Below are positions 1-15,243 of a stretch of 64,000 bases of DNA, piece by piece. A model generated the notes under the pieces. The model had not been told where the DNA came from, made no database searches, and saw only the letters and a program-made list of their open reading frames with translations. Position 1 is the first letter of the stretch, and each line of letters starts with the position of its first letter. A program made the translations under genes and the position numbers. Origin of the DNA: a virus (Duplodnaviria; Caudoviricetes); the IMG/VR virus record IMGVR_UViG_3300021399_000159, positions 2,753-66,752 of that record, one strand, 5' to 3'.

Positions 1-171
1 GATCTTTGCCCATCCGCCACGCTTTGAGGACATACGATCCAGTTTCAGAAAGTCATCCGCAATGTGTGCGGACATTGTGTAGTAAAGCATCCCATTCAGA
101 ACAAAACCAACGATATAAGCAGTAGCCACGGCGAGGGCGTTGTAGCGGGCGATCATTTCATTGCGAGTCAT
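1..171 (-). CDS. Hypothetical early protein, truncated at window edge
   Basis: ATG at 171 (minus) with AGAAAGGAAGG RBS and TTGACA-17-TATACT promoter (239..211); open to position 1 (MTRNEMIARYNALAV...KLDRMSSKRGGWAKI). Confidence 0.75.
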   Translation of the reverse strand, partial: MTRNEMIARYNALAVATAYIVGFVLNGMLYYTMSAHIADDFLKLDRMSSKRGGWAKI

Positions 172-210
172 TTTATTTCCTTCCTTTCTGTTCCCCCTTG
201 GAACATCTTA

Positions 211-343
211 AGTATATCACTTCCCGGCCCGAATGTCAACCCCTTTGATGAAAAAATTTTCGGCCGGCCAATTTCAATTTCGCCGGCCGAATTTGTATAT
301 ACAAATTTTAATCCTTGACTTATCCCATAATTTCATATATAAT
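211..343. promoter_or_regulatory. Divergent pair of sigma70/sigmaA promoters
   Basis: Minus: TTGACA(239-234)-17-TATACT(216-211). Plus: TTGACT(315-320)-17-TATAAT(338-343). Two GCCGGC boxes and palindrome AATTTGTATATACAAATT lie between. Confidence 0.85.
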
Positions 344-363
344 ATATGTATGAGGTGAGAGAG

Positions 364-507
364 ATGGAGAAACTGGTAATGAAATTTGGTTTTGCAATCT
401 TCCTATTTTGTGCTATGTGCGCCGTATTGATTGGATCCCGTTTCATATGGGGCGCATGCGTTGGCGCAGCTATTACCTTATTCGCATGGTTCTTTGATGA
501 GGACTAA
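364..507 (+). CDS. Small membrane peptide (47 aa)
   Basis: GAGGTGA RBS, ATG 364, TAA 507; two hydrophobic stretches; below ORF-track cut-off. Confidence 0.7.
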   Translation: MEKLVMKFGFAIFLFCAMCAVLIGSRFIWGACVGAAITLFAWFFDED

Positions 508-597
508 ATCTGCCGGCCGCGCGGGATGTTCAATCTGGTCAGAAATTTTCCCAAATAAGTGATTGTTCTGATCCTATAGGTATGATAAAATATCAGT

Positions 598-850
598 GTC
601 AGGTGAGGGAAGGCAAAGCCCGAAACGGGTGTGACCCATGAGAGTCAGTAAGACCATTCCCGATGAACCAACCGCACGCCGAAAGAGCGAGATGGTGCGG
701 TATACAGTGTGGCGAGCACTGGGATCCGAAAGGGTTCAAATGTCGAGGCAGCACCTGCAGGGGACTGAAACAGGCAGGGATTCATCTCGTGAAGACCTCC
801 CCTTCCACCTCTGAAACGCACTTCTGAAGAAAGCGTCCCTCAAGTGGTAA
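598..850 (+). ncRNA. Putative structured non-coding RNA (~250 nt)
   Basis: Own promoter (TTGTTC 563-17-TAAAAT 586) and terminator (851-880); closing stem 601-613/801-810; several stems, some capped by GAAA tetraloops; no RBS-supported ORF. Confidence 0.65.
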
Positions 851-880
851 AAATGCCGCCATGTAGGCGGCATTTCATTT
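851..880 (+). terminator. Intrinsic terminator
   Basis: AAATGCCGCC-ATGTA-GGCGGCATTT followed by T-rich tail. Confidence 0.75.
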
Positions 881-1051
881 TGCTTTCATGTTAGTTCCGT
901 CTAACCGCGCCGGCTAACCCCTCTCCCAAAATCAGCCGGCGCGCCACCACTTGTCTAATTTGGTTTTTAATTTGCCCATAATTCATATAACAAAAGTATT
1001 GACAATTCTTTCCCATTATGGTATCATTTAACCATCGAAGGAGGCGGACTA

Positions 1052-1213
1052 ATGAAACGAGCAGGATACAAGCGTCACGATGAACTGGCCGCATGGGATC
1101 TGAATGCAGGTTGCCGCCGTTGGGTTAATCAAGCTTCCCCTGCTAATCGGCGCTTGAAGAAAAAACTTCGGCGGCAGGCACGGAAAAAACTTGACAGAAC
1201 ACTTTGGAACTGA
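1052..1213 (+). CDS. Small basic protein (53 aa)
   Basis: GGAGG RBS, promoter 999-1027, Arg/Lys-rich C-terminus. Confidence 0.7.
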   Translation: MKRAGYKRHDELAAWDLNAGCRRWVNQASPANRRLKKKLRRQARKKLDRTLWN

Positions 1214-1251
1214 TATAATATACTCGTAAGAAAGAAAGGGAGGATTTCAAG

Positions 1252-1410
1252 ATGGATAAGTACGAATATGAGGATTCTTACTGGGACGAATATGACCAGT
1301 CCATGCCCGATCCTGAGGACGATTACCCCGAGGATGACTACTACGAGGACTGGGACAACCTTGAATGTGGTTTTGACCCTTACATGGGTTGCTACTCGGA
1401 CGATTGCTAA
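1252..1410 (+). CDS. Very acidic peptide (52 aa)
   Basis: GGAGG RBS; MDKYEYEDSYWDEYD...GFDPYMGCYSDDC; about 21 D/E vs 1 K. Confidence 0.75.
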   Translation: MDKYEYEDSYWDEYDQSMPDPEDDYPEDDYYEDWDNLECGFDPYMGCYSDDC

Positions 1411-1588
1411 TCGTCCGTAGTCGCGCCGGCTAATTTCATTTAGGTACCGAATGATTCTAGCCGGCGCCCTGTGCCAGCCGGCGCCGCCTAAAACTTAACA
1501 GAATTGTAACAAAATTATACTTGATTTTGTAACAATCATATGGTATTATATACTTGTCCGAAGGGGACAGGAAAGGAAGGAAAGAAAA

Positions 1589-1864
1589 ATGACAATCCGC
1601 AAGTTCAACGATCATCCCTACGCACAGGCGACTATCATCGAATCTACCGATGGCGCAAAGGCACTGGTAAGCTACCGCACTACAGTGGTCACCGTTGATA
1701 ATGAAGGCTGGCTCCATGTGAACGGGCTGTATAGCATGACTACTATTAGGCACATCGGCTGGTTCATGCGGGAGCTGGGGTTCACCTACCAGCTGGCTAA
1801 ACAGCTGTACAATGATCGCAAGGAAATGAATATTTATACAGGGGAGGTGATTGACTGTGACTAA
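1589..1864 (+). CDS. Hypothetical protein
   Basis: ORF track; AAGGAAGG RBS; own promoter. Confidence 0.8.
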   Translation: MTIRKFNDHPYAQATIIESTDGAKALVSYRTTVVTVDNEGWLHVNGLYSMTTIRHIGWFMRELGFTYQLAKQLYNDRKEMNIYTGEVIDCD

Positions 1865-2093
1865 TGAAAACCGTGTTCGGCATTGGGCCTTCCTGTGGTG
1901 GAACTTCAACCAAACTCCGCCCGTTGATATCCGTATTGAAGTTATGAAGTATATACAAGCACATCCACAGGATTTTAAAGGCGCGGGTCCTCAGTGATTC
2001 GTGCCGGCGCACGTCACAAAATTGTAACAAAATTAATTGTTGACTTATAATAAATTTTATGCTATAATTATTCCAGAAAGTGAGGGATATGAA

Positions 2094-2321
2094 ATGGTAA
2101 AAATCACGAAAGGTATGGCACGGAAACTGTATAACGAGGGCAAGGAAATTATGATCCTTCCTAATAGAATAAAGGCCAATAGCCCGTTGGCAAGTTGGAT
2201 TTCTAAACCTTCTGAGCCTATGTTTATGGATACCTTTGACAAGGTATGTGATGCGGTTTTCTATTACAATTGCTCTCCCGAAACTGGCATGACATTGGCT
2301 TACTACGCGAAGGAAGTCTAA
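2094..2321 (+). CDS. Hypothetical protein (75 aa)
   Basis: Start moved to ATG 2094 behind GAGGG RBS; the upstream part of the tracked ORF overlaps the promoter. Confidence 0.75.
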   Translation: MVKITKGMARKLYNEGKEIMILPNRIKANSPLASWISKPSEPMFMDTFDKVCDAVFYYNCSPETGMTLAYYAKEV

Positions 2322-2673
2322 CTTCCCTCGCACGCAGCCGGCCGCCGATTTAACAAAATTGTAACACTTTCGTTCTTCCTTTGTAATATCTTTATGGTAT
2401 AATAATCATGTCGAAAGGGGAAGGGTGAGCGTAAGCGGACTCGAACGAGAAACAAAAAAAGTTTCAGATACCCCTTGACCGCCACCACAAACTGTGGTAC
2501 AATAACAATGTCGGAAGGGGAAGCCAAGAAGGTCACTAACCACAGTGCTCCCCAACCCCGACAGAAACTTTGAAAAAAGTTTCAAAAAACCCTTGACATT
2601 CTCACAGAAATGTGATAGAATGAATATGAAAAGAGGGGAAGGAAAACCCCACAAACCAGAAAGGGTAACCGCC

Positions 2674-3063
2674 ATGAAGAAAAACACTATCCGCATCCTT
2701 GCCAATGTCCTGTCTACCATGCCTGAAGGTACTATGCTCGATAACCCTCTGTTCGATGGAGCCGCTACCACTCGCAAGCAGATTCCTGCTTCTGAGCTGT
2801 ATGACGAGCTGAACGCTGAGCTGAACAAGGGAGCTGAGGAAAAGGCTCGGAACGCTGAGCTGTACGATGCCGCCAAAGCGGTTGTGATGGACGAGCTCGG
2901 TACCACCGATAAGGCTGTGACCATCGGCGAGCTGTTCGAAGCCATCGAGGACAAGCTGCCCAAGGGCTTCACGAAGGGCAAGCTCCAGTACGCTGTGACT
3001 CGGCTCTGGAAGGACGAAATCGTCCGCACCGAGGGTAAGGTTAACACCTACGCCAAGGCGTAA
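2674..3063 (+). CDS. Winged-helix DNA-binding protein, paralog 1
   Basis: C-terminal TIGELFEAI...TKGKLQYAVTRLWKDEIVRTEGKVNTY wHTH pattern; AAACCAGAAAGG leader; paralog of 7211, 8208, 9532. Confidence 0.75.
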   Translation: MKKNTIRILANVLSTMPEGTMLDNPLFDGAATTRKQIPASELYDELNAELNKGAEEKARNAELYDAAKAVVMDELGTTDKAVTIGELFEAIEDKLPKGFTKGKLQYAVTRLWKDEIVRTEGKVNTYAKA

Positions 3064-3068
3064 TTTGA

Positions 3069-3100
3069 AAAGGGGAAGGGAAACCTTCCCCTTTCCTTTT
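3069..3100 (+). terminator. Intrinsic terminator
   Basis: GGGGAAGG-GAAA-CCTTCCCC + T run. Confidence 0.75.
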
Positions 3101-3234
3101 GCTGTAGAGTTAGTCTCCGCTAACCGCGCCGGCGCGAATTTGTTAATAGAATTGTAACAATTTCACTATTGACTTTTCTTTACAGTATGGTATAATAAGA
3201 TTGTTCCAAGAAGAACGGAAAGGACGGATTGAGA

Positions 3235-3504
3235 ATGAAACTTTATTGTAAAAGAGAATGGGAAGCCGATATATCAGATGAAATGATTATAAAAGCAGTA
3301 GATGAGTATGTACATAAAAATTTTTATCGCAATTACTATTCGTTAATGAATCGCAGAGATGTGCAATGGATTGCAGAATCTATAGTTAAAAAAATGACTG
3401 ATTATGATCAATATCCTAATGAGTTCACGAAACCCTTACGTACACGCATCCGTGAAATTATTACACAGCGCATAAAGGAGATAGAAGAAAATGCAGACGA
3501 TTAA
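3235..3504 (+). CDS. Hypothetical protein
   Basis: ORF track; RBS; own promoter. Confidence 0.75.
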   Translation: MKLYCKREWEADISDEMIIKAVDEYVHKNFYRNYYSLMNRRDVQWIAESIVKKMTDYDQYPNEFTKPLRTRIREIITQRIKEIEENADD

Positions 3505-3745
3505 AAACTGGTTCGGTATTGAAACCCCTTACCACTTTGAATGGAATGACCTTCGATGCGGAATTACTATCCTTAACGTAATTCTAATTATGCTCTTCGG
3601 TTTGCAGGTATCATGGTTCGGACTCGCTATCGCCCTCTTCGGCGTGTGTAAAGACTTCTCTCAGCATCGGCATATCAATGATATTCTGATGCATTTCTCA
3701 AGCGTAGTCCTCAACCTTTACTTCCTTTCCCTCCTCTATAAGTAG
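3491..3745 (+). CDS. Small membrane protein (ends at TAG in standard code)
   Basis: Hydrophobic segments; TAG stop sits in terminator hairpin AAGTAGA-CTTCGG-TCTACTT. Confidence 0.7.
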   Translation: MQTIKNWFGIETPYHFEWNDLRCGITILNVILIMLFGLQVSWFGLAIALFGVCKDFSQHRHINDILMHFSSVVLNLYFLSLLYK

Positions 3746-3854
3746 ACTTCGGTCTACTTTTTCAGCCGGCGTCCCGTAACAGAAACTTAACAATTTTATC
3801 TATTGACAAATCCCAAATCTATGATATAATAATATTGAAAGTGAGGTATGAAGT

Positions 3855-4115
3855 ATGAAAATGAGAAACTTGATCATGGACACAAGCGACCTTTCCTTTG
3901 AAGAACTGGATGCCCTTATCCGCCAGTTGAAGGAAGCACGTGCACGCAAAGGTGAAGCACGAGCATGCCATCAGAACTTCTCCGCAATGATTGAGAACAT
4001 GAGGGAAAAGAATCTTGTGTTCTGTAGCAAGCACACGGGCGAAATTTTAAATCCGAATGATTGGGAAGTATATGATAGTTTGACTCATGCAACATATCCC
4101 GAAAAGGATAAGTAA
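3855..4115 (+). CDS. Hypothetical protein
   Basis: ORF track; GAGGT RBS; own promoter. Confidence 0.75.
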   Translation: MKMRNLIMDTSDLSFEELDALIRQLKEARARKGEARACHQNFSAMIENMREKNLVFCSKHTGEILNPNDWEVYDSLTHATYPEKDK

Positions 4116-4261
4116 TAAGGTAAATTAGCGCAAGCTAACTTCCGCCGGCCAATTTCAGCCGGCCGCCAGATTTAACAGAAATGTAACAATTTTCCCCTTG
4201 ACAATCCCGTAATCCTCGTGTATAATTTAGGTACAGAGAGAGGAAAGGAAGGTACGAAAGA

Positions 4262-4711
4262 ATGAGGACGATTTGGTGGGATATGGATGGCACGATCGCC
4301 AACTTATATGCGGTTGATAACTGGCTTCCGATGCTTCGGGCAGAAGATACCACGCCCTATATAGAAGCTGAAGTGATGTGGAACATGAGCCAACTGGCTC
4401 GACTGATGAATCAGGTACAGAAGCTCGGTTATAAGCTCGGAATCATCAGCTGGACAAGCAAAGGCGGCTCGGCAAGCTACAACGAAGCTGTGAAACAGGC
4501 GAAGCTGGGCTGGCTGAATAAGCACCTCGCAAGCGTCAACTGGGATAACATCTGCGTGGTAAGCTACGGCACTCCGAAAAGCCTTGTAATGCAGGGCGAA
4601 GATGATATTCTATTTGATGATGAAGAACCTAATAGAGATGCTTGGCTCGGTGAAGCTTACGAACCTGAAATGATGATTAAGGTATTGAAAGCACTGCTTG
4701 GAAAGGAATGA
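4262..4711 (+). CDS. HAD-superfamily phosphatase (5'-nucleotidase/NT5C-like)
   Basis: N-terminal DMDGT (DxDGT) motif; ISWTS motif II; LFDD motif IV. Confidence 0.8.
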   Translation: MRTIWWDMDGTIANLYAVDNWLPMLRAEDTTPYIEAEVMWNMSQLARLMNQVQKLGYKLGIISWTSKGGSASYNEAVKQAKLGWLNKHLASVNWDNICVVSYGTPKSLVMQGEDDILFDDEEPNRDAWLGEAYEPEMMIKVLKALLGKE

Positions 4712-4716
4712 TAATT

Positions 4717-4935
4717 ATGAAGTATGTACAGACTTATAAAACCATTTGTATTGATAATCAGACCTTGGAGCAATTGAAAGACGTTAATAAACTTTTAGAC
4801 ACTATTACCTCTGAATTAGAAGAACTTGCAAAAGAAGATAAAAATTATGAAAATATTGCTAATGATGCATGGGACGCAAGCGCCGCACTTGATGACTTTT
4901 TGACTTCTTATCAGTGCGAAGTTACACGCGACTAA
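4717..4935 (+). CDS. Hypothetical protein
   Basis: ORF track; GAAAGGA RBS. Confidence 0.7.
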   Translation: MKYVQTYKTICIDNQTLEQLKDVNKLLDTITSELEELAKEDKNYENIANDAWDASAALDDFLTSYQCEVTRD

Positions 4936-5133
4936 TTTTGCGCCGGCCCGCCAGTTGTACGGACAATTTTGTATACAGTATTCTTATAAAATTTTTATTG
5001 ACAAATTTCAAATTTTATGATATAATATATATGAAAGTTGAGGAGAGGAAGAAAAATTTCCCCTAACCAACCCCTTGACAATCGCCAAATGTTGTGATAT
5101 AATATGTGCGTAAAAGGAAAGGAGAGATGCCAA

Positions 5134-5541
5134 ATGACTAAGGCTCAACTTGAAACCAAACTCCGTAACCGTTTCCTGTCTTTCATCACCCAGACCATTT
5201 CTCAGGAAATGGAAATTGATGCGCTTCCTGTTAGCGCAAGTGAACTTGCTGTCCCTTGCCTTGACGATGAAGGCAATGAAACGTGGGCATTGGTAAAGGT
5301 TTCCATCCCTCGTGGTACTCGGAATGGTGAAGGCGGTTATAATCCCTACAATGGCTATGCGCTTGCAGAAGAATACGCACAGGATTGCGTAGAAAAGGCA
5401 CAGAAGAAAGCCGATGCTGAAGCGAAGAAGCAGAAGAAAATCGCCGCGGACGAAAAGAAACGCGCCGAAAAGAAAGCGCTTGCCGAAGCCAATAAGAACC
5501 TTAAAGAACTCCGCAAAATTAAGGACACGCCTACGGCGTGA
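5134..5541 (+). CDS. Hypothetical protein with Lys/Ala-rich coiled-coil tail
   Basis: RBS AAAGGAG; similar architecture to 10307..10657. Confidence 0.75.
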   Translation: MTKAQLETKLRNRFLSFITQTISQEMEIDALPVSASELAVPCLDDEGNETWALVKVSIPRGTRNGEGGYNPYNGYALAEEYAQDCVEKAQKKADAEAKKQKKIAADEKKRAEKKALAEANKNLKELRKIKDTPTA

Positions 5542-5698
5542 TCCTTTTTTTATTACTATAGTTAGTTATGACTAACCGCGCCGGCCGCCGAGATTTAACA
5601 CTTTTGTAACAATTTTAGTGTTGACATTTTCTCTACATATGGTATAATACCTATGAAAGTTGAAGGAAAACAACACAAACCAGAAAGGGTATTCCACT

Positions 5699-6352
5699 AT
5701 GGCAAAATTTCTCTTCATGGATTCCGAAACAGCAGAAACTAACATTGTCGATGGTCAACTTGATGTAACCAATGGGCAGGTTTATGACCTTGGTCTGATG
5801 GTGATTGACGAGAATGGTAAGATGTATGACCAGATTAGCATGGTAAATGAAGATGTATTTTTTGGTATGCCTGAATCCATGAAGAACGCTTATTATGCGA
5901 ACAAGATTCCACAATATCTTGAGGATATACGGATGGGTAAGCGCAAGATCGTGAATAGTTGGCAGATGTACAAAATCTTTGCGAAAATGTTTCAAAAGTA
6001 TGACATCTCCGCAGTAGTTGCCCACAATGCCTTTTTCGATGTTAAGGTTCTCAACTCTACGATGCGTTATCAGACAAAGAGTTGCGTGCGGTGGTTTTTG
6101 CCTTGGGGTACAGAGATTATTGACACACTGAAACTTGCTCGTAACACTTTTGGAAAAGATCCGAAATATGTTGAATGGTGCAAGGCAAATGGATATATGA
6201 CGAACCATGCAACTCCTCGCCCTCGCTTGACCGCAGAGATTCTTTACAGATATATTACAGGAAATGACGAATTTATTGAGAGCCATACAGGGCTTGAAGA
6301 TGTACAGATCGAAGCAGACATTTTCCTTAAGATGATGAAAATGGGCGAGTAA
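5699..6352 (+). CDS. DEDDh 3'-5' exonuclease
   Basis: Exo I DSET (DxE), Exo II AHNAFFD, Exo III HTGLED; AAACCAGAAAGG leader. Confidence 0.85.
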   Translation: MAKFLFMDSETAETNIVDGQLDVTNGQVYDLGLMVIDENGKMYDQISMVNEDVFFGMPESMKNAYYANKIPQYLEDIRMGKRKIVNSWQMYKIFAKMFQKYDISAVVAHNAFFDVKVLNSTMRYQTKSCVRWFLPWGTEIIDTLKLARNTFGKDPKYVEWCKANGYMTNHATPRPRLTAEILYRYITGNDEFIESHTGLEDVQIEADIFLKMMKMGE

Positions 6353-6472
6353 TCGCCCATTTTTTCCATTCGCGCCGGCCGAAAAAATTAACACTTTTGT
6401 AATAATTTTATAATTGACACCACCCTCTTATTCTGATATAATAAGTATGTAAAAAGGAAAGGGGAATTTGAA

Positions 6473-6958
6473 ATGCGGAACTATGAAGAAAGAGCCAAAG
6501 ATTTTATCCACCAGATTTTCCCGTATCTTGTAGATTGCACGCACCATGAAGATCGCGAATGGGCAGTTACGTCCTTCAATATGGATTACAAGCGGAAGGT
6601 AAAATATGCTCATGGTATTTCCCGCTATGCCCTTATTACTTCTGACTATGTAGTAAAGGTAGACTATGCTACTACTCGTTGGGGCGATAGTGAAGATGAA
6701 ATGGAAGTCTATCAGGAAGCCTTAGCAGATGGATTTGAATATTTATTCGCTAAAATTTCCCGTTATACATATAATGGATGCACATTTTATATTATGCCCC
6801 GTATCTATGGTATCGGAAAGTATATATATGATGCCGATGAATATCTAACTCCCAGTGAAAATGATTGGGTATCTGACCACGTATGCGACTTACATAATGA
6901 AAATTATGGTTGGAAAAATGGCCATGTAGTTATCTTTGATTACGCCGCTCGGCGCTAA
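6473..6958 (+). CDS. Minimal protein-kinase-like protein (161 aa)
   Basis: GISRYA...VVK (Gly loop + catalytic Lys), EDEMEVY (alphaC Glu), DLHNEN (catalytic loop), IFDYA (DFG-like). Confidence 0.65.
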   Translation: MRNYEERAKDFIHQIFPYLVDCTHHEDREWAVTSFNMDYKRKVKYAHGISRYALITSDYVVKVDYATTRWGDSEDEMEVYQEALADGFEYLFAKISRYTYNGCTFYIMPRIYGIGKYIYDADEYLTPSENDWVSDHVCDLHNENYGWKNGHVVIFDYAARR

Positions 6959-7210
6959 CCGATCGGCCGGCCGCCGATTGTATACAGTATTCTTCTAATT
7001 TTATACTTGACACCCTATATAATTTCTGCTATAATATAATTGTTCCGAGGGGAACAGACCTCAAACGAAGGCGCCAAATGTTTGAGGGAGTTCCCCAAGG
7101 AAAAAGTTTGAAAAAAGTTTTGAAAAAGACTTGACAAACATCAAAACCTATGATATACTAATCACGAACAAAGGGAAGGACACCCTATAAACCAGAAAGG
7201 AATGACCACT

Positions 7211-7549
7211 ATGAAGAAAGCCACCATGAACACCATCCTGTCCCTCATCGCTACCATCGACACTCCCGAAGCCGAAGCGGTTCGTGCGGAATTGAACGCC
7301 GAACTGGCTAAGGGTGCGGAAAAAGCGCAGGCTAATCGTGACCTGTACGCTTCCGCCCACGATGCGGTTATCTCGGCTCTGGCAGATGCTTCTGCCCCTG
7401 TGACCATGTCCGAACTGTGGGAAGCAGTTGAGGACAATATGCCCGAAGGCATGACCAAGGGCAAGATGCAGTATGCGGTGACTCGCCTGTGGACTGACGA
7501 GATCGTCAAGACCGAAGGCAAGGTCAATGCCTACTCTCTGAAGGCGTAA
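7211..7549 (+). CDS. Winged-helix DNA-binding protein, paralog 2
   Basis: TMSELWEAV...TKGKMQYAVTRLWTDEIVKTEGKVNAY; shared leader. Confidence 0.75.
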   Translation: MKKATMNTILSLIATIDTPEAEAVRAELNAELAKGAEKAQANRDLYASAHDAVISALADASAPVTMSELWEAVEDNMPEGMTKGKMQYAVTRLWTDEIVKTEGKVNAYSLKA

Positions 7550-8207
7550 GCCTTCAGAGAGCGAGGAAAATCATAGTTGGTAGGTATGGAAAGACCACGC
7601 AACCCCCACTGAACAAACCTCGTTAAAAAATGTACGGGAAGCAATGCGACTAAAAGACTCCAGGGCGCTTCATCGCGCCCCATTTTATTACTATTCCGCT
7701 TTAGCGCTTTAGCGCGTTAAAGCGGCCGGCCATTCCTAAAACTAGCCGGCCGCGAATTGTATACAGTATTCTTGAAAATTAGTGCTTGACTTCAGATAAA
7801 AACTCTGCTATAATATAATTGTTCCAAGAGGAGATGACGACCATTCCGAAGAAATCTTCGGCGGGGCGGTAAAGAAACGCACGCAGATAAGCACCCCAGA
7901 GGGTTGGCTTATAGGAAGAGGACATCAAAAAATTTTTTCAGAAACTTCTGAAAAACCCCTTGACAACAAGCAAATCCTGTGCTATAATAAGGATGTTCCC
8001 AGTAAGGGATGGACTTTCGGAGGTGAGAACTGACGGGTCGCCGTGAAATCTCCTGTAATCCCAAGGGGATGAAGCGGACAGGTTTCTCTCCATCTTCTCC
8101 TGCTAAGAAAAAAGATGGAAAAAAATACTTGACATCTTCCACGAAATGTGGTAAGATATATATGAAACAGAGGAAGGAAAACCTCACAAACCAGAAAGGT
8201 TACTACT

Positions 8208-8534
8208 ATGAAGAAAGCCACTCTGTCCGCCATCTACGATGCTCTGAAAGCCATTGACTTCGATGCTGATATGCTTGCTGAAGTCGAAAAGGATCTGACC
8301 AAGGGTGATGCCGAAAAGGCAAAGAACGCCGAAGTGTATGAGCAGGCGAAGCCTATCGTCCTCGGTGCTCTGTCTGATATCCCTGTGACCCTCGGCGAAC
8401 TCTACGATGAGGTCGTTAACGAACTGCCCGAAGGTTTCACCAAGGGCAAAGTCCAGTATGCCATCACTCGCCTGTGGGCAGATGATGTAACCAAGGTTGA
8501 GGGCAAGGTCAACTCCTACGCCCGCAAGGCGTAA
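8208..8534 (+). CDS. Winged-helix DNA-binding protein, paralog 3
   Basis: TLGELYDEV...TKGKVQYAITRLWADDVTKVEGKVNSY; shared leader. Confidence 0.75.
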   Translation: MKKATLSAIYDALKAIDFDADMLAEVEKDLTKGDAEKAKNAEVYEQAKPIVLGALSDIPVTLGELYDEVVNELPEGFTKGKVQYAITRLWADDVTKVEGKVNSYARKA

Positions 8535-8694
8535 TCTTCCTCAAGGGGTGCGACTTCTCGCACCCCAATTTCATTTCTGCATATTGTATACAGGATACCT
8601 CGTGCCGGCCGATTTAACAATCTTGTAACAATTTAGTAGTTGACTTGTAATATCTATTATGCTATAATAAGAGAGTCGAAGGGAGGAATATAAA

Positions 8695-8832
8695 ATGAAT
8701 GTGTACATCAAGAACTCCGAGGGTCAGCAGACAGTCCGCTACCTTCCACTGTTTAGAGCGATTTATCTGCGGTTGCTTGTGTTCGCAAGATACCGCAAGG
8801 ATGAAAGACCGATAGTAAGATTCGTAATTTGA
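8695..8832 (+). CDS. Small hypothetical protein (45 aa)
   Basis: GGAGG RBS; own promoter. Confidence 0.65.
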   Translation: MNVYIKNSEGQQTVRYLPLFRAIYLRLLVFARYRKDERPIVRFVI

Positions 8833-8846
8833 AAGGAGATTGAAGC

Positions 8847-9053
8847 ATGAAAAACTTTGCAGACTTTATCAAAGAAACTTATGACATTGAAATCCCGAAG
8901 GGCAATATCCCAGGCTCTTGGTTCATTCAGAACCATATTCCTATGGTGGTTCGTTGTTCCTGTTGTGATATGACAATGGCTTCACCTTCCGCATGGATTG
9001 ACGATGAGGGTTACACCTATTGCAGGGACTGCGCCGATATTAAGGAGGAATAA
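8847..9053 (+). CDS. Small Zn-finger-like protein
   Basis: CSCC and CRDC motifs. Confidence 0.7.
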   Translation: MKNFADFIKETYDIEIPKGNIPGSWFIQNHIPMVVRCSCCDMTMASPSAWIDDEGYTYCRDCADIKEE

Positions 9054-9055
9054 TA

Positions 9056-9304
9056 ATGACTATTTATGCAGTAACTGAAATAATCACCGAATCCAAAGAA
9101 CAAAATGCTTGGGGATACTATTCTTCATTAGAAAAAGCACAGCAGGCAATTTTAAAGCGAGTAGCCGAAGAATATACCGAAGAAGAAATGAAAAATTTTC
9201 ACTGGCAGTATGGAGATACTCGATATGTCACGCCTGACACTGATTGGGTTGCAGGATGTACCTATGATATTGAAGAATATGAATTAGATGGGGAGTTAGC
9301 GTAA
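9056..9304 (+). CDS. Acidic hypothetical protein (paralog of 11689..11955)
   Basis: Shared YSS.EKA.QA...R.AEEYT.EE and CTY.I..YELDG motifs. Confidence 0.75.
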   Translation: MTIYAVTEIITESKEQNAWGYYSSLEKAQQAILKRVAEEYTEEEMKNFHWQYGDTRYVTPDTDWVAGCTYDIEEYELDGELA

Positions 9305-9531
9305 GCTAACTCCGCCGGCCGCGAATTGTATACAGTATTCTTCAAAATAAATGCTTGACTTCTGATAAAATTTCTGATATACTATATATGTCAGGTGAGG
9401 GGAAGAGGTTCTCCGAGGGCGAAAAAAACTTTGAAAAAAAGTTTGAAAAACCCTTGACAGCCATCCTAAAATCTGATATAATAAATACGAAAATAGGAAG
9501 GACACCTCACAAACCAGAAAGGGTTACCACT

Positions 9532-9858
9532 ATGAAGAAACTGTCTCTCGTTGCTATCAAGAACGCTCTGGTTGGATTCGGTTATGCGGACGAAGCTATC
9601 CTTGCCGAACTGGACAAGGAAATCACCAAGGGTGAAGCGCAGAAAGCAAAGAACGCCGAAGCCTACGATGCCATCCATGACATCGTAATGGGTGCTCTGA
9701 CTTCCGCTCCTGCGACTGTCGCCGAGATTTGGGATGCGATCGAGGATGAAGTCCCCGAAGGCATCACCAAGGGTAAGGTTCAGTACGCTCTGACCCACCT
9801 CTGGAGCGATGAAATCGTCAAGGTTGAGGGCAAGCCGAATGGCTATCGGAGGGCGTAA
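9532..9858 (+). CDS. Winged-helix DNA-binding protein, paralog 4
   Basis: TVAEIWDAI...TKGKVQYALTHLWSDEIVKVEGKPNGY; shared leader. Confidence 0.75.
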   Translation: MKKLSLVAIKNALVGFGYADEAILAELDKEITKGEAQKAKNAEAYDAIHDIVMGALTSAPATVAEIWDAIEDEVPEGITKGKVQYALTHLWSDEIVKVEGKPNGYRRA

Positions 9859-9986
9859 GCCCTCCACCTCGCAGAAGTCCTTTGGCAGTATGCCCAGTTC
9901 TGCATTATCAAAAGCGAGAAACTGCCCACCACGAGGGTTTCCGAGGGTCTTTCAGTGTGGTTAAACAACATAAGCCCTCTTTTTAT

Positions 9987-10100
9987 GGGAAGCGTCAGTG
10001 GCATCAGGGAAGCCACCGAGGTAAACCCAAAAGGTGATCTCGCAGTGGGACAGTTGCAAAAATGGGGCCCACAGGAGTTCAATTCTCCCGCTTTCCACCA
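9987..10100 (+). ncRNA. tRNA-like RNA (114 nt) with Ala identity elements, non-canonical anticodon arm
   Basis: Acceptor GGGAAGCG/CGCTTTCC (G3.U70), discriminator A, encoded CCA, T-arm GGAG-TTCAATT-CTCC, three internal stems. Confidence 0.65.
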
Positions 10101-10306
10101 ACATTACCTTATATCCTTTCCTTCCTTCCTTCGCCCACCGCTTGCGGTGGGCTTCTCTTTTATTGCACATTGTATACAGGATACGGCGGCCGGCCGCAAA
10201 TTTGTACATACAACAATGTATACAAATAAAATTTAAAATAATGCTTGACAAATCCCAAAACATAGATTATAATATATATGAAATCAGAAAGGAAAGGTGA
10301 TTTAAG

Positions 10307-10657
10307 ATGGCTAAAGTTACTAAGACCCAGAACGATAAGTCCCTTCGTGATCTTGTTTTCTCTGAACTGTTTGAGGGCAATGATACCAAATACGACTTCG
10401 TGCGTATCAATGACCGCCAGTATGGTGTTATCCTTACTGACCTTAATGGGCATCAGCGCTATGTCCGTATCGGTGCTATCGTTGCCGAAGAGCGTGATGA
10501 TATGACTGCTAAGGAACTGATGCAGTCCGAGATTGATACCTACAATCAAAAGCAGGCAGACAAGGCAGAGAAAGCCAAAGCGAAGGAAAAGAAGATCGCC
10601 AAAGACAAGGCTCGGCGCGAAGCCGAAGCCAAAGCAAAGGAAGGTGAACAGGCATGA
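10307..10657 (+). CDS. Hypothetical protein with Lys/Ala-rich tail (related to 5134..5541)
   Basis: ORF track; RBS; own promoter. Confidence 0.75.
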   Translation: MAKVTKTQNDKSLRDLVFSELFEGNDTKYDFVRINDRQYGVILTDLNGHQRYVRIGAIVAEERDDMTAKELMQSEIDTYNQKQADKAEKAKAKEKKIAKDKARREAEAKAKEGEQA

Positions 10658-10911
10658 CACTTGAATGGAATGTTCCTATGGTTGTAGATTATCCCGAGGA
10701 TGATTTAACAGATATTATCAAGTCCGTGCAGGAACACGGGTGGGATGAAGAAAAGGTTATTGCTTACATCAATGACACGGTGTCAGGCTTTGAAGATGGT
10801 ATTTATTATAACTGGGGTCGCGAGCAGACCATGGCAGTGGTAAATGAAATCAAACATCGTATTGGTGGAATCCAGCTTTCGATGTTTGACGAAGAAGTTA
10901 GCGTAAGCTAA
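10654..10911 (+). CDS. Hypothetical protein
   Basis: ATGA overlap with upstream gene. Confidence 0.75.
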   Translation: MTLEWNVPMVVDYPEDDLTDIIKSVQEHGWDEEKVIAYINDTVSGFEDGIYYNWGREQTMAVVNEIKHRIGGIQLSMFDEEVSVS

Positions 10912-11008
10912 CTTCGGCCGGCCGCAAGATTTAATACAATTGTAACAATTTACCCCTTGACTTTCACTACAGATATGATATAATAGTTACGAAAGGAAGG
11001 GATATGAG

Positions 11009-11443
11009 ATGACTAAACTTCAGGCTATTCGTGAGTTCGCAGACTTCCTCGCAGAAGGACACACTATTATTGCCCGTGATCGTTGCGATAATGGAAACTG
11101 GGCGATGGATATAGATGGCACAAGTCCTCGGTTGAAACTGCCAAAAGATTTTGAATATCGGGATGAAGCGGATAAAGCTTTCCGCAAAGATTTTACAGCA
11201 CGTTGCCCCATTGCTAAAGGGTTTGCCGATATAACGCTTACCATTCTTCATGAGTTCGGGCATTGGTATAACCGCAATATCATGAACATTGTGGTTTATG
11301 AAGATTTAGTTAAAAGCGAAGAAAACTATTTCGCTAACCCCTATGAGGTACTTGCTACGCAATGGGCAATTTGTTGGCTTCTGTGCCCCGCAAATCGGCA
11401 GATTGCAAAGGACTTTGAAAAGAAGTATTTCGGGCGCGCCTAA
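11009..11443 (+). CDS. HExxH zinc-metallopeptidase-like protein
   Basis: LHEFGH motif with downstream PYE..A third-ligand Glu. Confidence 0.7.
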   Translation: MTKLQAIREFADFLAEGHTIIARDRCDNGNWAMDIDGTSPRLKLPKDFEYRDEADKAFRKDFTARCPIAKGFADITLTILHEFGHWYNRNIMNIVVYEDLVKSEENYFANPYEVLATQWAICWLLCPANRQIAKDFEKKYFGRA

Positions 11444-11542
11444 GGCGCCGGCCCGCAAATTTAACAGAATCTTAACAATTTTGTAGTTGACTTGTAACAT
11501 AATATCTGATATAATGAGTGTGTTGAAAGGGAGGAAAGAGAA

Positions 11543-11689
11543 ATGGCGAAGCAGAAGAAAGTCAAGACTAACGTTGAAATCTTTATGGGAACTCGGAAAT
11601 CTTGGGGTAATGTAAACCCCGTAACTCGTGTGATTCCAGACAAACGATTTAAGAAACCGAAGTACAAGGGAAAGGAGTTTGATGACTAA
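11543..11689 (+). CDS. Small basic protein (48 aa)
   Basis: GGAGG RBS; own promoter; Lys-rich. Confidence 0.7.
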   Translation: MAKQKKVKTNVEIFMGTRKSWGNVNPVTRVIPDKRFKKPKYKGKEFDD

Positions 11690-11955
11690 TGAAAGTATAT
11701 GAAGTAGTTGAATATATAACCGAGGACTTCAAAGAAGATGGAGTTCACGGCGAGAACGCAAGCGGTATGTATTCCTCTATTGATAAGGCAAGACAGGCAA
11801 CCCTTGACCGTATTGCGGAAGAATATACAAAAGAAGAAATCTCTGCAATGAATATTCCCGATGATTGGGAATATTTAGAAGTCCCAGAAAATGAATGGAC
11901 TGCAAGTTGTACCTATATCATTTATAGTTATGAATTAGATGGGAGGATTGAATAA
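11689..11955 (+). CDS. Acidic hypothetical protein (paralog of 9056..9304)
   Basis: See 9056. Confidence 0.75.
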   Translation: MKVYEVVEYITEDFKEDGVHGENASGMYSSIDKARQATLDRIAEEYTKEEISAMNIPDDWEYLEVPENEWTASCTYIIYSYELDGRIE

Positions 11956-11956
11956 T

Positions 11957-12133
11957 ATGAATACTTGCCCCGATTGCCCCGATTATGAACTTGAAATGTA
12001 CGAACATTATGATGAATATAAGGACGATATTTTGCTCCAAGAACAGCACTTTGAATGTCCTCATTGCCACCGCACCTTCGCCCGCAATGTGTGGTATAAG
12101 ATGGATGGAATCGTATGGCTTGACGAAGAATAA
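11957..12133 (+). CDS. Zn-ribbon small protein
   Basis: CPDC...CPHC; similar to the next gene. Confidence 0.7.
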   Translation: MNTCPDCPDYELEMYEHYDEYKDDILLQEQHFECPHCHRTFARNVWYKMDGIVWLDEE

Positions 12134-12146
12134 GGAGGAATCATAA

Positions 12147-12338
12147 ATGAAATGCCCTAAATGTGGAACGCAACTTATATATGAAGATCTTTTGGACGAA
12201 TACTATGATTCAGAAGTACACGATGAAAAATGGCGTGTATTATGCCCAGCGCAAGGATGCAACTTTGAAGGAAAATTATGGCAAAATTATCGTCTTGAAA
12301 GTGAGGAATTGGTAACCGATGAAGAAAGTGATAATTAA
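12147..12338 (+). CDS. Zn-ribbon small protein
   Basis: CPKC...CPAQGC; GGAGG RBS. Confidence 0.7.
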   Translation: MKCPKCGTQLIYEDLLDEYYDSEVHDEKWRVLCPAQGCNFEGKLWQNYRLESEELVTDEESDN

Positions 12339-12582
12339 ACGTCTTACCTATTACGCACCGCACACGGGCGAGACCATGTACGGGGCGGAAGAATATGATG
12401 CCCACCTGTCCGATGCCAATATCTTAGGCACAATCCATGAGGTAGGCAAAACCATATGGATTGGCGAGACATTGTGGCTTCTGGTAGAAGATGAGCCCAC
12501 TTACCGCATTGATGTAGAACGTTTCTACCAATATACAAAGTCATGGTTTGACTTGCTTATAGATGCAGTTAGGCGTGCCTAA
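12319..12582 (+). CDS. Hypothetical protein
   Basis: ORF track; last gene before inverted element. Confidence 0.7.
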   Translation: MKKVIIKRLTYYAPHTGETMYGAEEYDAHLSDANILGTIHEVGKTIWIGETLWLLVEDEPTYRIDVERFYQYTKSWFDLLIDAVRRA

Positions 12583-12694
12583 CTGCGGCCGGCCATTTTG
12601 GCCGGCTCATTTTTATATCTAGCCGGCCGCCCAACTCCACCTTCTCCCCCAGTATATCATACCACGCCCGAGCGCGCAAGTCAAGCAGGAAATT

Positions 12695-12743
12695 ATTACA
12701 AAATTGTTAAATTTCTATTACATTTCTGTTACATTTCTGTTAC
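12695..12743 (-). repeat. Tandem 11-bp repeats (GTAACAGAAAT-like, 4-5 copies, minus strand)
   Basis: Minus strand reads GTAACAGAAAT GTAACAGAAAT GTAATAGAAAT TTAACAATTTT GTAAT. Confidence 0.8.
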
Positions 12744-12819
12744 GCTACCTGTAATATGTCAGAGCCTTATCCTATAAGCCTTTCCGGCCTGTCAAATATG
12801 TATACAGTATACACCCCTA

Positions 12820-13320
12820 TATAAGCTGCATCTATAAGCTGGATAAGCTGCGCCGGCCCCTTATATTTCAAGGCTCCCACGAGCTGGAAGCTGGGTCTTA
12901 TGCCGGCGAGCTGGATACTGTATACAAGCTGGACGAGCTGGGTTTGTATCCTGTATACAGCGGTAAGCTGCGCGCTAGGAAGCTGCGTTATCGCCCCGAG
13001 ATTTTAATCGAGAATTTTTGGATTGAATAAATATTCGGAAGCTGCTTCCGGAAAATTAACCATACCAATTTTTGGCTTGCGACAAGCTGCGCTATTCGGC
13101 CCACAATCGGAAGCATCGCGAGCTGGCGCAAGCCGTTTCTCCGTCATCGTGGAAAATCGGGAATCCGCTCCAGAAAACCCAAAAAATTTTTTTAAAAAAT
13201 TTTTTTCAAATACTTGACAAGCTGCAAAATTTCGTGTATAATATTAATGTAAGGAGGAGAGAGAGATGAGACGAGCCTACGTTGTGGTTGGCCTTAATCC
13301 AGAAACCAACGAGCTGGAAC
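12820..13320 (+). repeat. Cluster of (A/G)AGCTG hexamers
   Basis: About 14 same-strand copies in ~500 bp of mostly non-coding DNA. Confidence 0.7.
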
Positions 13321-13436
13321 AAATGTTTGGCGCCTGTCATACGATGAACCGCGCCGAGGAAATATGTTTGGAAGCTGAAACTGAAAATCCTGAGCTGATT
13401 TTCTGCTGGTATGAAGTAGTAGAGGAGGATGATTGA
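13266..13436 (+). CDS. Small acidic protein (56 aa)
   Basis: GGAGG RBS; promoter 13215-13243. Confidence 0.7.
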   Translation: MRRAYVVVGLNPETNELEQMFGACHTMNRAEEICLEAETENPELIFCWYEVVEEDD

Positions 13437-13437
13437 T

Positions 13438-13629
13438 ATGGAAACTCGCACCTATTATTTCCCGTCTAACCGCATTGGCCGCTACATTCTCAATTATCTG
13501 ATTGATCGCGTCGGTTGCTCCATCGGCGATATCCACAAGGTCGCCGATACTATCGCTGTCCCGATTACCGTACAGAAGAAGGACGTAGTTAAGGTTGAAC
13601 GCATCCTTCAAATGTATGATTTAATCTAA
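13438..13629 (+). CDS. Hypothetical protein
   Basis: GAGGAGG RBS; ORF track. Confidence 0.7.
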   Translation: METRTYYFPSNRIGRYILNYLIDRVGCSIGDIHKVADTIAVPITVQKKDVVKVERILQMYDLI

Positions 13630-13750
13630 CTAATATTTGACTTTCAGTCAAATTTAGAGTATAATAAAGATGTTCCAAGAGAACAAAAGAAAAATTTTGA
13701 CAGTTAGCGGTCTGTCGTAAATTACAAAACCGTGTGTAAAAGGAGGAAAT

Positions 13751-14236
13751 ATGACGAATTCTGAAATCCTATCCACCATTCTTGCGATGCCCGGTGCCTA
13801 GATGTGCCGCGTCAACAAGACCAATTTTGTTGCCATCCCCACTGAAGATGGCTATGCCAAGGTTGCTATTGGTACTGCCCTGGCAAAAGACACCAAGGCC
13901 CACAAGGCGTTCAACTTTGACGCCGCTACCGCCGAATATAAGGCTTGGGAAGCTGAAGCTGCTCTCCGTGTCGCCGAGCGTGCGAACAAGCCCGTAAAGG
14001 TAAAGGGTCCCAATCCTGAAGCTGAAGCTCGCCGTCAGGCACTCGATGCTCAGGTTGCTAGTCTACCTTCCTTCACTGACTATACCGCCACTGACATTCT
14101 AAATGCGCTGGCTGGTAAGGTCGCAGAGAACGTAACCGTTATGGCAGTTGGTTCCAGCGCGCAGCGTCTAGTTGAGCAGGGTCTACTCACTATGACTCTG
14201 GATGAGAAGAAAAAGAAGCACTATACCAAGGGTTAA
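13751..14236 (+). CDS. Protein with C-terminal winged-helix-like domain (161 aa; TAG=Gln at codon 17)
   Basis: AGGAGG RBS precedes ATG 13751; in frame through TAG 13799 with tracked ORF 13802. Confidence 0.7.
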
Positions 14237-14239
14237 TTA

Positions 14240-14268
14240 GAAGCGGCTATGCCGCTTCTTTTTTTATA
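14240..14268 (+). terminator. Intrinsic terminator
   Basis: AGAAGCGGC-TAT-GCCGCTTCT + T run. Confidence 0.8.
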
Positions 14269-14415
14269 CAACAAAATTGTATACAGGATACAATTATATT
14301 AAATTAAATTTTTAAATAAAAATTTTTTATTTAAATTTAAAAAAATTTTTTTTAAAAAATATTTGACAAAAAATAAATTTTCTGATATAATATTTATAGA
14401 AAGGGGAGAGGAAGA

Positions 14416-14658
14416 ATGAAGTATTGGGCGCTGGATTATGTTAATGGTAGAGATGGTGAATGTGAGCTGGTATATAATGATCAGCTTTACGCAACTGAGG
14501 CAGATGCTGCGGCCGCGCGTGAAGCCACTAAATGTCCTGACCTTTTTGATATTACATGGTACACCACAGCAGACCTGAGAGATACAGTATATTGTCTCGA
14601 AGCTGGCGAAGTTCTAGAAATTGATAAAGACCTTAAAGTACATATAATTCAGATGTAA
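14416..14658 (+). CDS. Hypothetical protein
   Basis: ORF track; RBS; promoter; terminator 14657-14685. Confidence 0.75.
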   Translation: MKYWALDYVNGRDGECELVYNDQLYATEADAAAAREATKCPDLFDITWYTTADLRDTVYCLEAGEVLEIDKDLKVHIIQM

Positions 14659-15019
14659 GGCAGCGCAAGCTGCCTTATTTTTTATTAAAATTGTATACAA
14701 GATACACAAGCTGCACAGCCGGGATTGTATACAGTATACATATACGACTGCGCGCAAGCTGGATACAAAATACAGACGAATTTCAATTTCATTTTCAATC
14801 GCTGCAATTTCATTTTCATCTATAATCTACTAGCCCGAAACCCCTCCCGCAATTTCATTTCCTATAATTCTCCCCCATTTCAGACGCATTTGATAATTTT
14901 TTCAGCCTAATACCTACCCGGGTATTAGCTGCATCGGGCGCAAAAGCCGAACTCTATCTATAATCCGATGAATAAGCCGATGTATCGGTATTGTGCGCAA
15001 AGGGATTTTTCGTGCAATC

Positions 15020-15243
15020 CCCCTTATCAGACGCATTTGTTATATATATATCAAATGCGCTTGAAACGGGGTACTAAAAATTTTTGTAATCGAATTTCAT
15101 ATTGCGCAGCTACGTTGCTATCTATTAAAATAAGCTGTATAAAATATCCTGTAAGTGGATTATCCGCAATATGAAAATTCGTCGTAGCTCCCTTATCGGG
15201 CGCATTTGTTATATATATATCAAACGCGTTCAAAAAGGGGGAC
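15020..15243 (+). repeat. Two ~50-bp imperfect direct repeats in non-coding region
   Basis: CCCTTATC..CGCATTTGTTATATATATATCAAA.GCG...GGG at ~15020 and ~15190; partial third copy at ~14874. Confidence 0.8.

Follow-up and report, generated by a model that had tools for sequence, protein, structure and literature searches.

An early region of GCCGGC-led modules and a candidate host metal-repressor site in a TAG-recoded phage of ruminant guts

Results and Discussion

This study examined a 64,000-nucleotide stretch of phage DNA (hereafter the window), which comprises bases 2753 to 66752 of the single 66,752-bp virus contig IMGVR_UViG_3300021399_000159. The first 13 kb of the window hold an array of small-gene units opened by the hexamer GCCGGC, and at several unit boundaries this hexamer is preceded by the palindrome GTTAG-N6-CTAAC. 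The account that we favor, with moderate confidence and from sequence comparison, is that this early region consists of about 19 modules that would be joined at GCCGGC and exchanged in a manner similar to the promoter-early stem-loops (PeSLs) of T4-type phages, with the palindrome being a separate site of the type bound by a host repressor.

Organization of the array

Nineteen GCCGGC-led units were counted, consistent with the original prediction, made from the sequence of the window, of about 20 self-contained gene cassettes. The order of elements that it described (hairpin, GCCGGC, operator, promoter, small open reading frames (ORFs)) holds in the window and in 13 related early regions. Each unit consists of GCCGGC, an upstream operator, a consensus sigma-70-type promoter, and one to five small genes or an RNA, with a terminator at the 3' end of most, but not all, modules. 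Between box and promoter, the operator is AT-rich, with either a TGTATACA palindrome or direct repeats of TAACA. In 13.5 kb there are 22 plus-strand matches to the promoter at 11/12 or better, 12 of them perfect, and every unit has a match of its own (9/12 to 12/12), the weaker leading matches being those of units 2, 4, 6, and 16. The boundary modules, which are repeat families spanning operator and promoter, measure 80-116 nt and are 60-75% alike, and the longest exact stretch among aligned boundary copies, as read from the alignment, is approximately 29 nt.

All 19 units lie on the plus strand. Unit 1 (263..507) contains GCCGGC at 282, a promoter (315-343), and a small membrane-like gene (364-507), while the GCCGGC at 263 belongs to a divergent minus-strand promoter (239-211). 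Unit 2 (512..880) contains GCCGGC at 512, a weak promoter near 563-591, and a terminator (851-875), its product (598-850) being a structured RNA or a 58-aa ORF. After this terminator comes the first palindrome (H box 1, 890..905), 3 nt before the GCCGGC at 909 that opens unit 3 (909..1417). That unit has a second GCCGGC at 935, a promoter (999-1027) with gene 1052-1213, and an internal promoter (1191-1219) with gene 1252-1410. In unit 4 (1425..1997), three copies of GCCGGC (1425, 1460, and 1477) precede a TAACA-repeat operator, a promoter (1521-1549), and genes 1589-1864 and 1851-1997. Unit 5 (2003..2326) is simpler, with GCCGGC at 2003, an operator, a promoter (2040-2068), and gene 2094-2321. 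Unit 6 (2337..3100) begins with GCCGGC at 2337, an operator, and a promoter near 2374-2402, continues with short leader RNAs that have promoters at 2475 and 2593, and ends with a winged helix-turn-helix (wHTH) paralog (2674-3063) and a terminator (3069-3094). H box 2 (3109..3124) follows this terminator, 3 nt before GCCGGC 3128.

Unit 7 (3128..3763) is composed of this GCCGGC, an operator, a promoter (3169-3196), genes 3235-3504 and 3491-3745, and a terminator; unit 8 (3765..4115) has GCCGGC at 3765, a promoter (3803-3830), and gene 3855-4115. A degenerate H box with one mismatch (4124..4139) lies 4 nt before the GCCGGC at 4144, which together with a copy at 4158 opens unit 9 (4144..4935), followed by an operator, a promoter (4198-4226), a deoxynucleotidase-like gene (4262-4711), and gene 4717-4935. 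Unit 10 (4942..5555) has GCCGGC at 4942, a TGTATACA-type operator, promoters at 4998 and 5075, gene 5134-5541, and a terminator (5526-5550). It is followed by H box 3 (5561..5576), the only copy in the window with the exact bacterial 16-mer consensus GTTAGTYATRACTAAC. Next are unit 11 (5580..6366), with GCCGGC at 5580, an operator, a promoter (5621-5648), a DnaQ-like exonuclease gene (5699-6352), and a terminator, and unit 12 (6374..6958), with GCCGGC at 6374, an operator, a promoter (6414-6442), and gene 6473-6958. The deoxynucleotidase-like and exonuclease genes are the recognizable genes of the first 13 kb.

Units 13, 14, and 16 carry the remaining three wHTH paralogs. Unit 13 (6966..7690) has GCCGGC at 6966, a TGTATACA operator, a promoter at 7007, a short RNA, a second promoter at 7131, the wHTH gene (7211-7549), and a non-coding tail with a terminator (7663-7680). 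Unit 14 (7725..8576) has GCCGGC at 7725 and 7745, promoters at 7786, 7960, and 8129 with short RNAs, the wHTH gene (8208-8534), and a terminator (8545-8566). Between these and unit 16 lies unit 15 (8604..9304), with GCCGGC at 8604, an operator, a promoter (8640-8668), and genes 8695-8832, 8847-9053, and 9056-9304; H box 4 (9295..9310) overlaps the stop codon of the last of these, its stem being extendable to 9 bp and lacking a U-tract after it. Unit 16 (9314..10162) consists of GCCGGC at 9314, a TGTATACA operator, promoters at 9355 and 9454, the wHTH gene (9532-9858), a tRNA-like RNA (9987-10100), and a terminator (10133-10152).

Unit 17 (10189..10911) has GCCGGC at 10189, a promoter (10245-10273), and genes 10307-10657 and 10654-10911, the stop codon of the latter being overlapped by H box 5 (10897..10912), whose spacer is identical to that of H box 4. 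Unit 18 (10917..11443) comprises GCCGGC at 10917, an operator, a promoter (10957-10984), and gene 11009-11443. Unit 19 (11447..12582) comprises GCCGGC at 11447, an operator, a promoter (11487-11515), and five small genes (11543-12582), with H box 6 (12568..12583) over the stop codon of gene 12319-12582. The array ends (12586..12627) with copies of GCCGGC at 12588, 12601, and 12622, after which there is no promoter for approximately 600 nt. Hairpins involving GCCGGC need a pair of boxes, as a single copy cannot fold: the copies at 909 and 935 could form a 10-bp stem, and those at 12588 and 12601 form a 9-bp hairpin followed by a T-run, with 12587-12607 scored as a terminator. Many units have a canonical terminator at their 3' end.

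The phage and its relatives

The contig is 36% complete according to CheckV, and two relatives of 179,585 and 179,225 bp are 100% complete; the genome size of the window's phage is roughly 180 kb. The sequencing runs containing the stretch are ruminant or animal gut metagenomes, and the habitat of the phage is ruminant guts. Nearly all contig genes are on the plus strand. The G+C content is 42-47% over the first 13 kb compared to about 36% beyond. From approximately 13.7 kb onward (window 13751-64000), long frames are open only if TAG is read through, including a 3097-aa frame with 25 TAGs (26832-36125) and a 1628-aa frame with 10 (42064-46950), which indicates that TAG is a sense codon in the later genes; in the first 13.6 kb, the standard code yields complete frames for the genes called. 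ARAGORN identified no tRNA, including suppressor tRNAs, in this partial contig.

Neither megablast of window positions 1-13000 nor tblastn of a 550-aa protein gave a match among GenBank phages, and no close relative was found in IMG/VR using the protein of gene 5699; a metagenome scan yielded 16. Rfam produced only chance-level matches over 1-16000. The small genes, mostly without known families, are typical of the early (host-takeover) region of a phage. As part of the overall explanation favored above, and held with the same moderate confidence, the host would be of the ruminant-gut Firmicutes type and the phage virulent (lytic-type).

GCCGGC at the boundaries of exchanged modules

The window contains 32 copies of GCCGGC compared to 6.9 expected. 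In the whole contig, 38 of the 40 copies fall within the first 15.7 kb, where 3.2 are expected, a 12-fold over-representation. The original prediction had noted about 30 copies in the array and about one elsewhere; the first count was confirmed (30 copies in 263-12907), while the remaining 51 kb was found to contain two. A general enrichment of CCGG or of other GC palindromes was rejected as the source of this pattern, as only GCCGGC and the overlapping CGGCCG are enriched, and 38 of the 48 CCGG sites in the first 15.7 kb belong to GCCGGC.

Alignment of the 13 related early regions demonstrated that homology of the promoter-gene modules begins at GCCGGC while the left-hand neighbors differ. 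In the upstream regions of the orthologs of gene 5699 (14 sequences) and gene 4262 (11 sequences), the sequence is alignable from GCCGGC to the ATG and unalignable to the left of GCCGGC, where the element present is GTTAG-N6-CTAAC, a TGTATAC palindrome, or a CTAAAGCG element. Since these left contexts are different element types rather than diverged copies, they appear to have been replaced rather than to have drifted. Pairs with the same right gene and different left genes, anchored on GCCGGC, have an identity of 0.25-0.31 to its left and 0.46-0.56 to its right, compared to a background of 0.25 and 0.30-0.35, respectively. The converse arrangement is found at the 3' end of gene 5134, where the terminator and palindrome are kept and five different right-hand modules are joined.

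Whole units have also been gained, lost, and moved between relatives, as expected from the PeSL-like modular shuffling proposed in the original prediction. The unit at 11447-12582 lies between the homologs of genes 3855 and 4262 in one relative (L050) and early in another (G002), and the units of genes 4262 and 5134 are swapped in order in G004 and G005. Where both genes of a neighboring pair are present, their adjacency is retained in 30% of cases at boundaries and 69% inside operons, percentages that derive from genome pairs that are not independent. These patterns point to GCCGGC as a joint between modules in an array that would evolve by modular exchange, a reading that shares the moderate confidence of the overall explanation.

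The GTTAG-N6-CTAAC palindrome in the phage

The six exact palindromes originally reported, at 890, 3109, 5561, 9295, 10897, and 12568, are all present, compared to 0.09 expected from shuffled sequences. Of the two near-matches reported with them, 4124 has a single mismatch and stands, whereas 4921 has two. The palindrome also adjoins the GC box as described, 3-4 nt before GCCGGC at all six sites, and the 6-nt spacer does vary, with five different spacers among the six sites (only those at 9295 and 10897 are alike). Between six and eight of the 19 boundaries carry a palindrome.

The composite palindrome-N3-GCCGGC is present in 39 IMG/VR loci, nearly always behind a terminator T-tract and ahead of an AT-rich element and a consensus promoter. 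In a sample fetched by protein, with no selection for the motif, GCCGGC lies 2-7 nt downstream of 33 of 38 palindromes and upstream of none. The complete relatives have the palindrome only within a 15-19-kb early block, with the exception of one copy at 76.5 kb in G007. The number of palindromes per contig ranges from 7 to 57, the latter in 73 kb of G008, which includes a tandem array of about 15 copies (L045 630-1300, G008:C1:35430-36100) where AGTTAGTTATGACTAACTAACTA copies with unrelated spacers are spaced approximately 49 bp apart beside divergent early-type promoters. The palindrome follows terminators or overlaps stop codons, and since the next -35 box is 60-95 nt farther downstream, it cannot occlude that promoter.

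The same palindrome upstream of bacterial metal genes

A search of bacteria with the 16-mer GTTAGTYATRACTAAC identified at least 120 loci, mostly in gut and rumen Firmicutes. In the first 80 of these loci, 78 ORFs start no more than 220 nt downstream of the site, among them members of DUF3793 (nine), ABC exporters (six), FeoA (five), FeoB (four), short DtxR-type repressors (four), ZIP (three), and NRAMP (two). With the arms-only pattern AGTTAG-N6-CTAACT, the 61 genomes of one family yielded 117 sites, compared to 10 for the control; the centers of these sites vary, with the half-sites AGTTAGT, AGTTAGC, and AGTTAGA. Eight of the ten downstream proteins tested at arms-only sites are FeoA, FeoB, ZIP, or DtxR-type proteins, and one more is an ABC ATPase. 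The bacterial site typically overlaps a promoter in its -10/+1 region and has the longer form A-GTTAG...CTAAC-T. Proteins of 127-172 aa with Fe_dep_repress and Fe_dep_repr_C domains are encoded downstream of the site at L070, L096, and L195 (confirmed with Pfam), and members of the same repressor cluster at L091 and L095 were assigned by BLAST only.

A palindrome representing the phage TGTATAC element, GTATACWGTATAC, served as a negative control; it gave 4 matches compared to about 19 control matches in 143 genomes of one candidate host family, and the TGTATAC palindrome was rejected as a host operator on this basis. GCCGGC was found within 20 nt of none of 122 bacterial palindrome sites, which rules out that it forms part of the host operator and indicates that it is the phage's own element. 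A phage-encoded DtxR was also rejected, because the phages have only sub-threshold PF01325 matches to generic wHTH proteins of 122-124 aa that lack a metal-binding domain; any binder would therefore be the host's. GTTAG-N6-CTAAC is probably the operator of a short DtxR-family repressor of the host. Its most likely role on the phage would be to dock or titrate this repressor, or to form a metal-dependent roadblock, rather than to repress the next promoter.

The classical iron box is a 19-bp site, TTAGGTTAG-S-CTAACCTAA, with arms 1 nt apart. The arms of the present palindrome are 6 nt apart, which indicates a distinct subfamily site, and a literature search for an AGTTAG-type operator in Clostridia found nothing specific. 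DUF3793 is the commonest neighbor of AGTTAG-N6-CTAACT (9 of 78 ORFs; loci L065, L085, L110, and six others), suggesting that this uncharacterized family belongs to a metal-starvation regulon.

Alternative explanations

There are several potential explanations for the recurrent motifs other than modular exchange at GCCGGC beside a host-type operator. The original prediction proposed that an integron-like or Xer/dif-like tyrosine recombinase exchanges cassettes at GTTAG-N6-CTAAC, which would account for fixed arms around a 6-nt variable center at the 3' ends of small gene cassettes and for the relocation of cassettes between relatives; moreover, GTTAG and CTAAC, with their GTT and AAC triplets, fit five of seven positions of the core consensus GTTRRRY / RYYYAAC. 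However, PF00589, PF00239, and PF01797 (tyrosine recombinases, serine recombinases, and Y1 transposases) have no match in the contig, which bears out the remark that the window lacks a recombinase, or in the two complete relatives, while control genomes were positive (14 of 14 for PF00589). Classical tyrosine recombinases require identical spacers in partner sites, and those of the six palindromes are of five kinds. Integron attC sites are imperfect palindromes of 57-141 bp with RYYYAAC at the 5' end and GTTRRRY at the 3' end, whereas the phage site is 16 bp long with the opposite arm order (GTT...AAC). Most integron cassettes lack a promoter and rely on a common one for expression, whereas every cassette here has its own, a minority of boundaries carry the palindrome, and gene turnover is equal inside motif-free operons. 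In addition, the palindrome is the predicted operator upstream of bacterial metal-uptake genes. As far as sequence can show, the array does not belong to the integron or dif/Xer systems, although XerCD of the host might supply a cognate recombinase, and recombinase-mediated exchange at the palindrome is largely refuted, retaining almost no probability. It is also very unlikely that GCCGGC, which is the NaeI/NgoMIV site, is the target of a restriction-like or homing-like nuclease whose double-strand breaks drive exchange at the joints. The hexamer is an exact palindrome, strongly over-represented and confined to joints, and the junctions map to it, but a phage would pay a high price for keeping 38 cleavable sites in the DNA that enters first, the array shows no inverted cassettes, and no nuclease was identified, although no search for one was made. 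Also improbable is a dedicated and as yet unrecognized exchange system with crossovers at GCCGGC, run by a host enzyme or by a nuclease or recombinase outside the known families, in which the palindromes beside the joints act as a sponge that derepresses iron and zinc uptake by the host; if true, it would amount to integron-like reshuffling of promoter-bearing early-gene cassettes.

A purely regulatory GCCGGC is somewhat unlikely. Here a phage or host protein bound on a fixed face of the helix would activate or shut off early promoters, and the coincidence with junctions would simply mark the start of constraint. Across 177 de-duplicated promoters, distances from the box to the -35 peak at 19, 29, 40, and 51 nt, with a period of 10.5-11.5 nt (Rayleigh p ~1e-10), placing the center of the box near -51.5, -61.5, -72.5, and -83.5 if the start is assumed to lie 7 nt after the -10; class I activators typically bind at such positions. 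Minus-strand promoters, too, are preceded by the box (L046, contig bases 1-2900, at 2062 and 2464), the consensus promoters of the TAG-containing region lack it, and it has GC-rich, roughly symmetric flanks. On the other hand, no promoter follows the boxes of the convergent junction L046 1637/1651, those at the end of the array (12588-12627), or those at 12852 and 12902, many units have two or three copies, and left contexts are replaced by other element types instead of merely drifting. For the palindrome, a role as a nucleic-acid hairpin instead of a protein operator, whether in mRNA as a processing or 3'-end signal or as a structure in single-stranded DNA, is quite improbable. Of 231 phage copies, 156 have positions 6 and 11 paired, compared to 89 +/- 6 in shuffles, the centers GTAA, GCAA, and TTCG give stable tetraloops, and three window copies lie over the stop codons of units without a canonical terminator, with stems reaching 9 bp. 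However, most copies in the relatives lie behind a terminator T-tract and would be largely untranscribed, the tandem array of G008 is away from gene ends, and the symmetric variation of operator half-sites seen in bacteria accounts for both the variable center and the covariation.

Some results weigh against modular exchange at GCCGGC with a separate host-repressor site. Right-hand neighbors are retained at similar rates at boundaries (17%) and inside operons (18%; again from non-independent genome pairs), and this equal turnover in motif-free operon interiors indicates that exchange is not restricted to GCCGGC. The approximately 11-nt period fits a protein site phased with the promoter, and the homology edge at GCCGGC could be the edge of functional constraint, although the same period could also arise from the 11-bp TAACA operator repeats between the box and the -35. 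None of the compared relatives is near-identical to the window's phage, so that recent exchanges are not covered. The strict bacterial 16-mer is matched by only two of the seven contig palindromes, the copies over stop codons make an additional RNA or DNA hairpin role possible, and a rigid palindrome-to-GCCGGC spacing was rejected given the 2-7 nt range in the sample not selected by motif.

With these points taken into account, modular exchange at GCCGGC beside a host-type operator remains the preferred explanation. The early region would have been assembled from self-contained transcription modules, each opened by GCCGGC. Because the boundary modules are only 60-75% alike with short exact stretches, ordinary homologous recombination is less obvious, and exchange at GCCGGC would most likely proceed by short-homology or illegitimate recombination filtered by selection, without an integron or Xer-type recombinase system. 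The palindrome, located between the end of a unit and the next GCCGGC, would be bound by the DtxR-family repressor of the host, and the phage copies may dock or titrate that repressor or create a metal-dependent roadblock.

Other genes, RNAs, and repeats

The original prediction also described scattered paralogs. This was confirmed for the four wHTH genes (45-53% identity) and for genes 9056 and 11689 (46%), while genes 5134 and 10307 have no BLASTP match to each other at E<=1e-3. The wHTH paralogs have only sub-threshold matches to DUF6958 in Pfam, and a profile of all four found nothing informative among PDB sequences. Short non-coding transcripts are predicted from several promoters ahead of the wHTH genes (598-850, 2400-2640, 7040-7120, and 7815-8120), and the segment 7806-8002 is 96% identical in relative G004, compared to 65-85% for neighboring genes. 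The exonuclease gene and all four wHTH genes share a conserved upstream leader, GGAAGGA-N-CACAAACCAGAAAGG (2631-2666, 5655-5690, 7167-7200, 8166-8201, and 9489-9524), which is invariant in 14 of 14 orthologous exonuclease-gene leaders. The tRNA-like RNA after the fourth wHTH gene (9987-10100) is approximately 114 nt long and is called by neither ARAGORN nor Rfam; it has a 7-bp acceptor stem with G3-U70, a T-arm GGAG-TTCAATT-CTCC, and A73 followed by CCA. At several gene ends (1399-1415, 2312-2326, 7538-7557, 9848-9865, and 11432-11454), the TAA stop codon forms the loop of a short hairpin rich in G+C, as in GGCG-TAA-GCC.

Downstream of the last unit, 12690-13230 contains TGTTAC-type repeats, three TGTATACA palindromes, and about 15 AAGCTG/GAGCTGG repeats, with the next promoter at 13214; these repeats may be an origin or another protein-binding array. 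GCTGG repeats also adjoin the palindrome array in G008. The sequence TTAACA-N5-GTAACA occurs just upstream of the -35 box in eleven promoters (window 1495-11482) and, read on the other strand as TGTTAC-N5-TGTTAA, fits the WalR/PhoP-type direct-repeat consensus, TGTWAH-N5-TGTWAH. Heptad direct repeats (AGTCAAA-GAA-AGTCAAA and GGTCAAA-GTC-AGTCAAA) occur in L046 at 240-300 and 305-415, each 3 nt before GCCGGC, and fit the CtsR operator consensus. They are followed by three CTTTAGCACGCTAAAG palindromes, and a similar element lies at window 7700-7722, before GCCGGC 7725.

Relation to known systems and significance

PeSLs are regulatory cassettes of T4-type phages (Arbiol et al. 2010, PMC2839356; Comeau et al. 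2014, PMC4122927), for which short-homology or illegitimate recombination followed by selection has been proposed (PMC2839356; PMC4122927). The array resembles them in its many repeats of a sigma-70-type consensus early promoter with an AT-rich part upstream, in being clustered in a plastic region whose small genes have no known function, and in that the motif bounds insertions, deletions, replacements, and moves between relatives, although genes are here also replaced inside operons. The GC-rich stem-loop of PeSLs, a terminator or attenuator, may have counterparts in the canonical terminators and in the hairpins that pairs of GCCGGC can form; PeSLs also give rise to excised minicircles through exchange between adjacent motifs. 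The array differs in belonging to another lineage (TAG-recoded, from the ruminant gut, with Gram-positive-type signals), in that its joint is an invariant 6-bp palindrome instead of the variable polyG/polyC hairpin of PeSLs, and in the predicted host-regulator sites at its joints.

For the palindrome, the closest likeness is to DtxR/IdeR/MntR operators, since in bacteria GTTAG/CTAAC-armed palindromes precede both metal-uptake genes and the gene of the repressor itself. A phage genome carrying the site of a host repressor also recalls corynephage beta, whose tox operator is bound by the host DtxR. Unlike in these cases, the repressors at the bacterial sites are short two-domain proteins, and the phage copies are numerous, lie between units instead of over a promoter, and form a tandem array in one relative. 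The genomes of phi29 and Nf reportedly contain host Spo0A boxes, a similar situation in which the early region of a virulent phage of a Gram-positive host, or its vicinity, holds multiple sites for one of the host's transcription factors, so that phage development is tied to host state; here the predicted signal is metal status instead of sporulation, and the sites are off the promoters.

These findings extend the PeSL idea, that regulatory cassettes can double as gene-shuffling connectors, beyond T4-type phages. The same logic would operate in widespread, large, uncultured, TAG-recoded phages of the ruminant gut, where GCCGGC provides a simple marker of module boundaries. The presence of many host metal-repressor-type sites in the early-gene DNA of a lytic-type phage suggests that such phages may read the iron or zinc status of the host or disturb its metal control. 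In addition, the AGTTAG-N6-CTAACT site that precedes feo, ZIP, and dtxR-like genes may represent an undescribed regulon motif of gut Firmicutes, and this bacterial site could help to narrow down the host of the phage.

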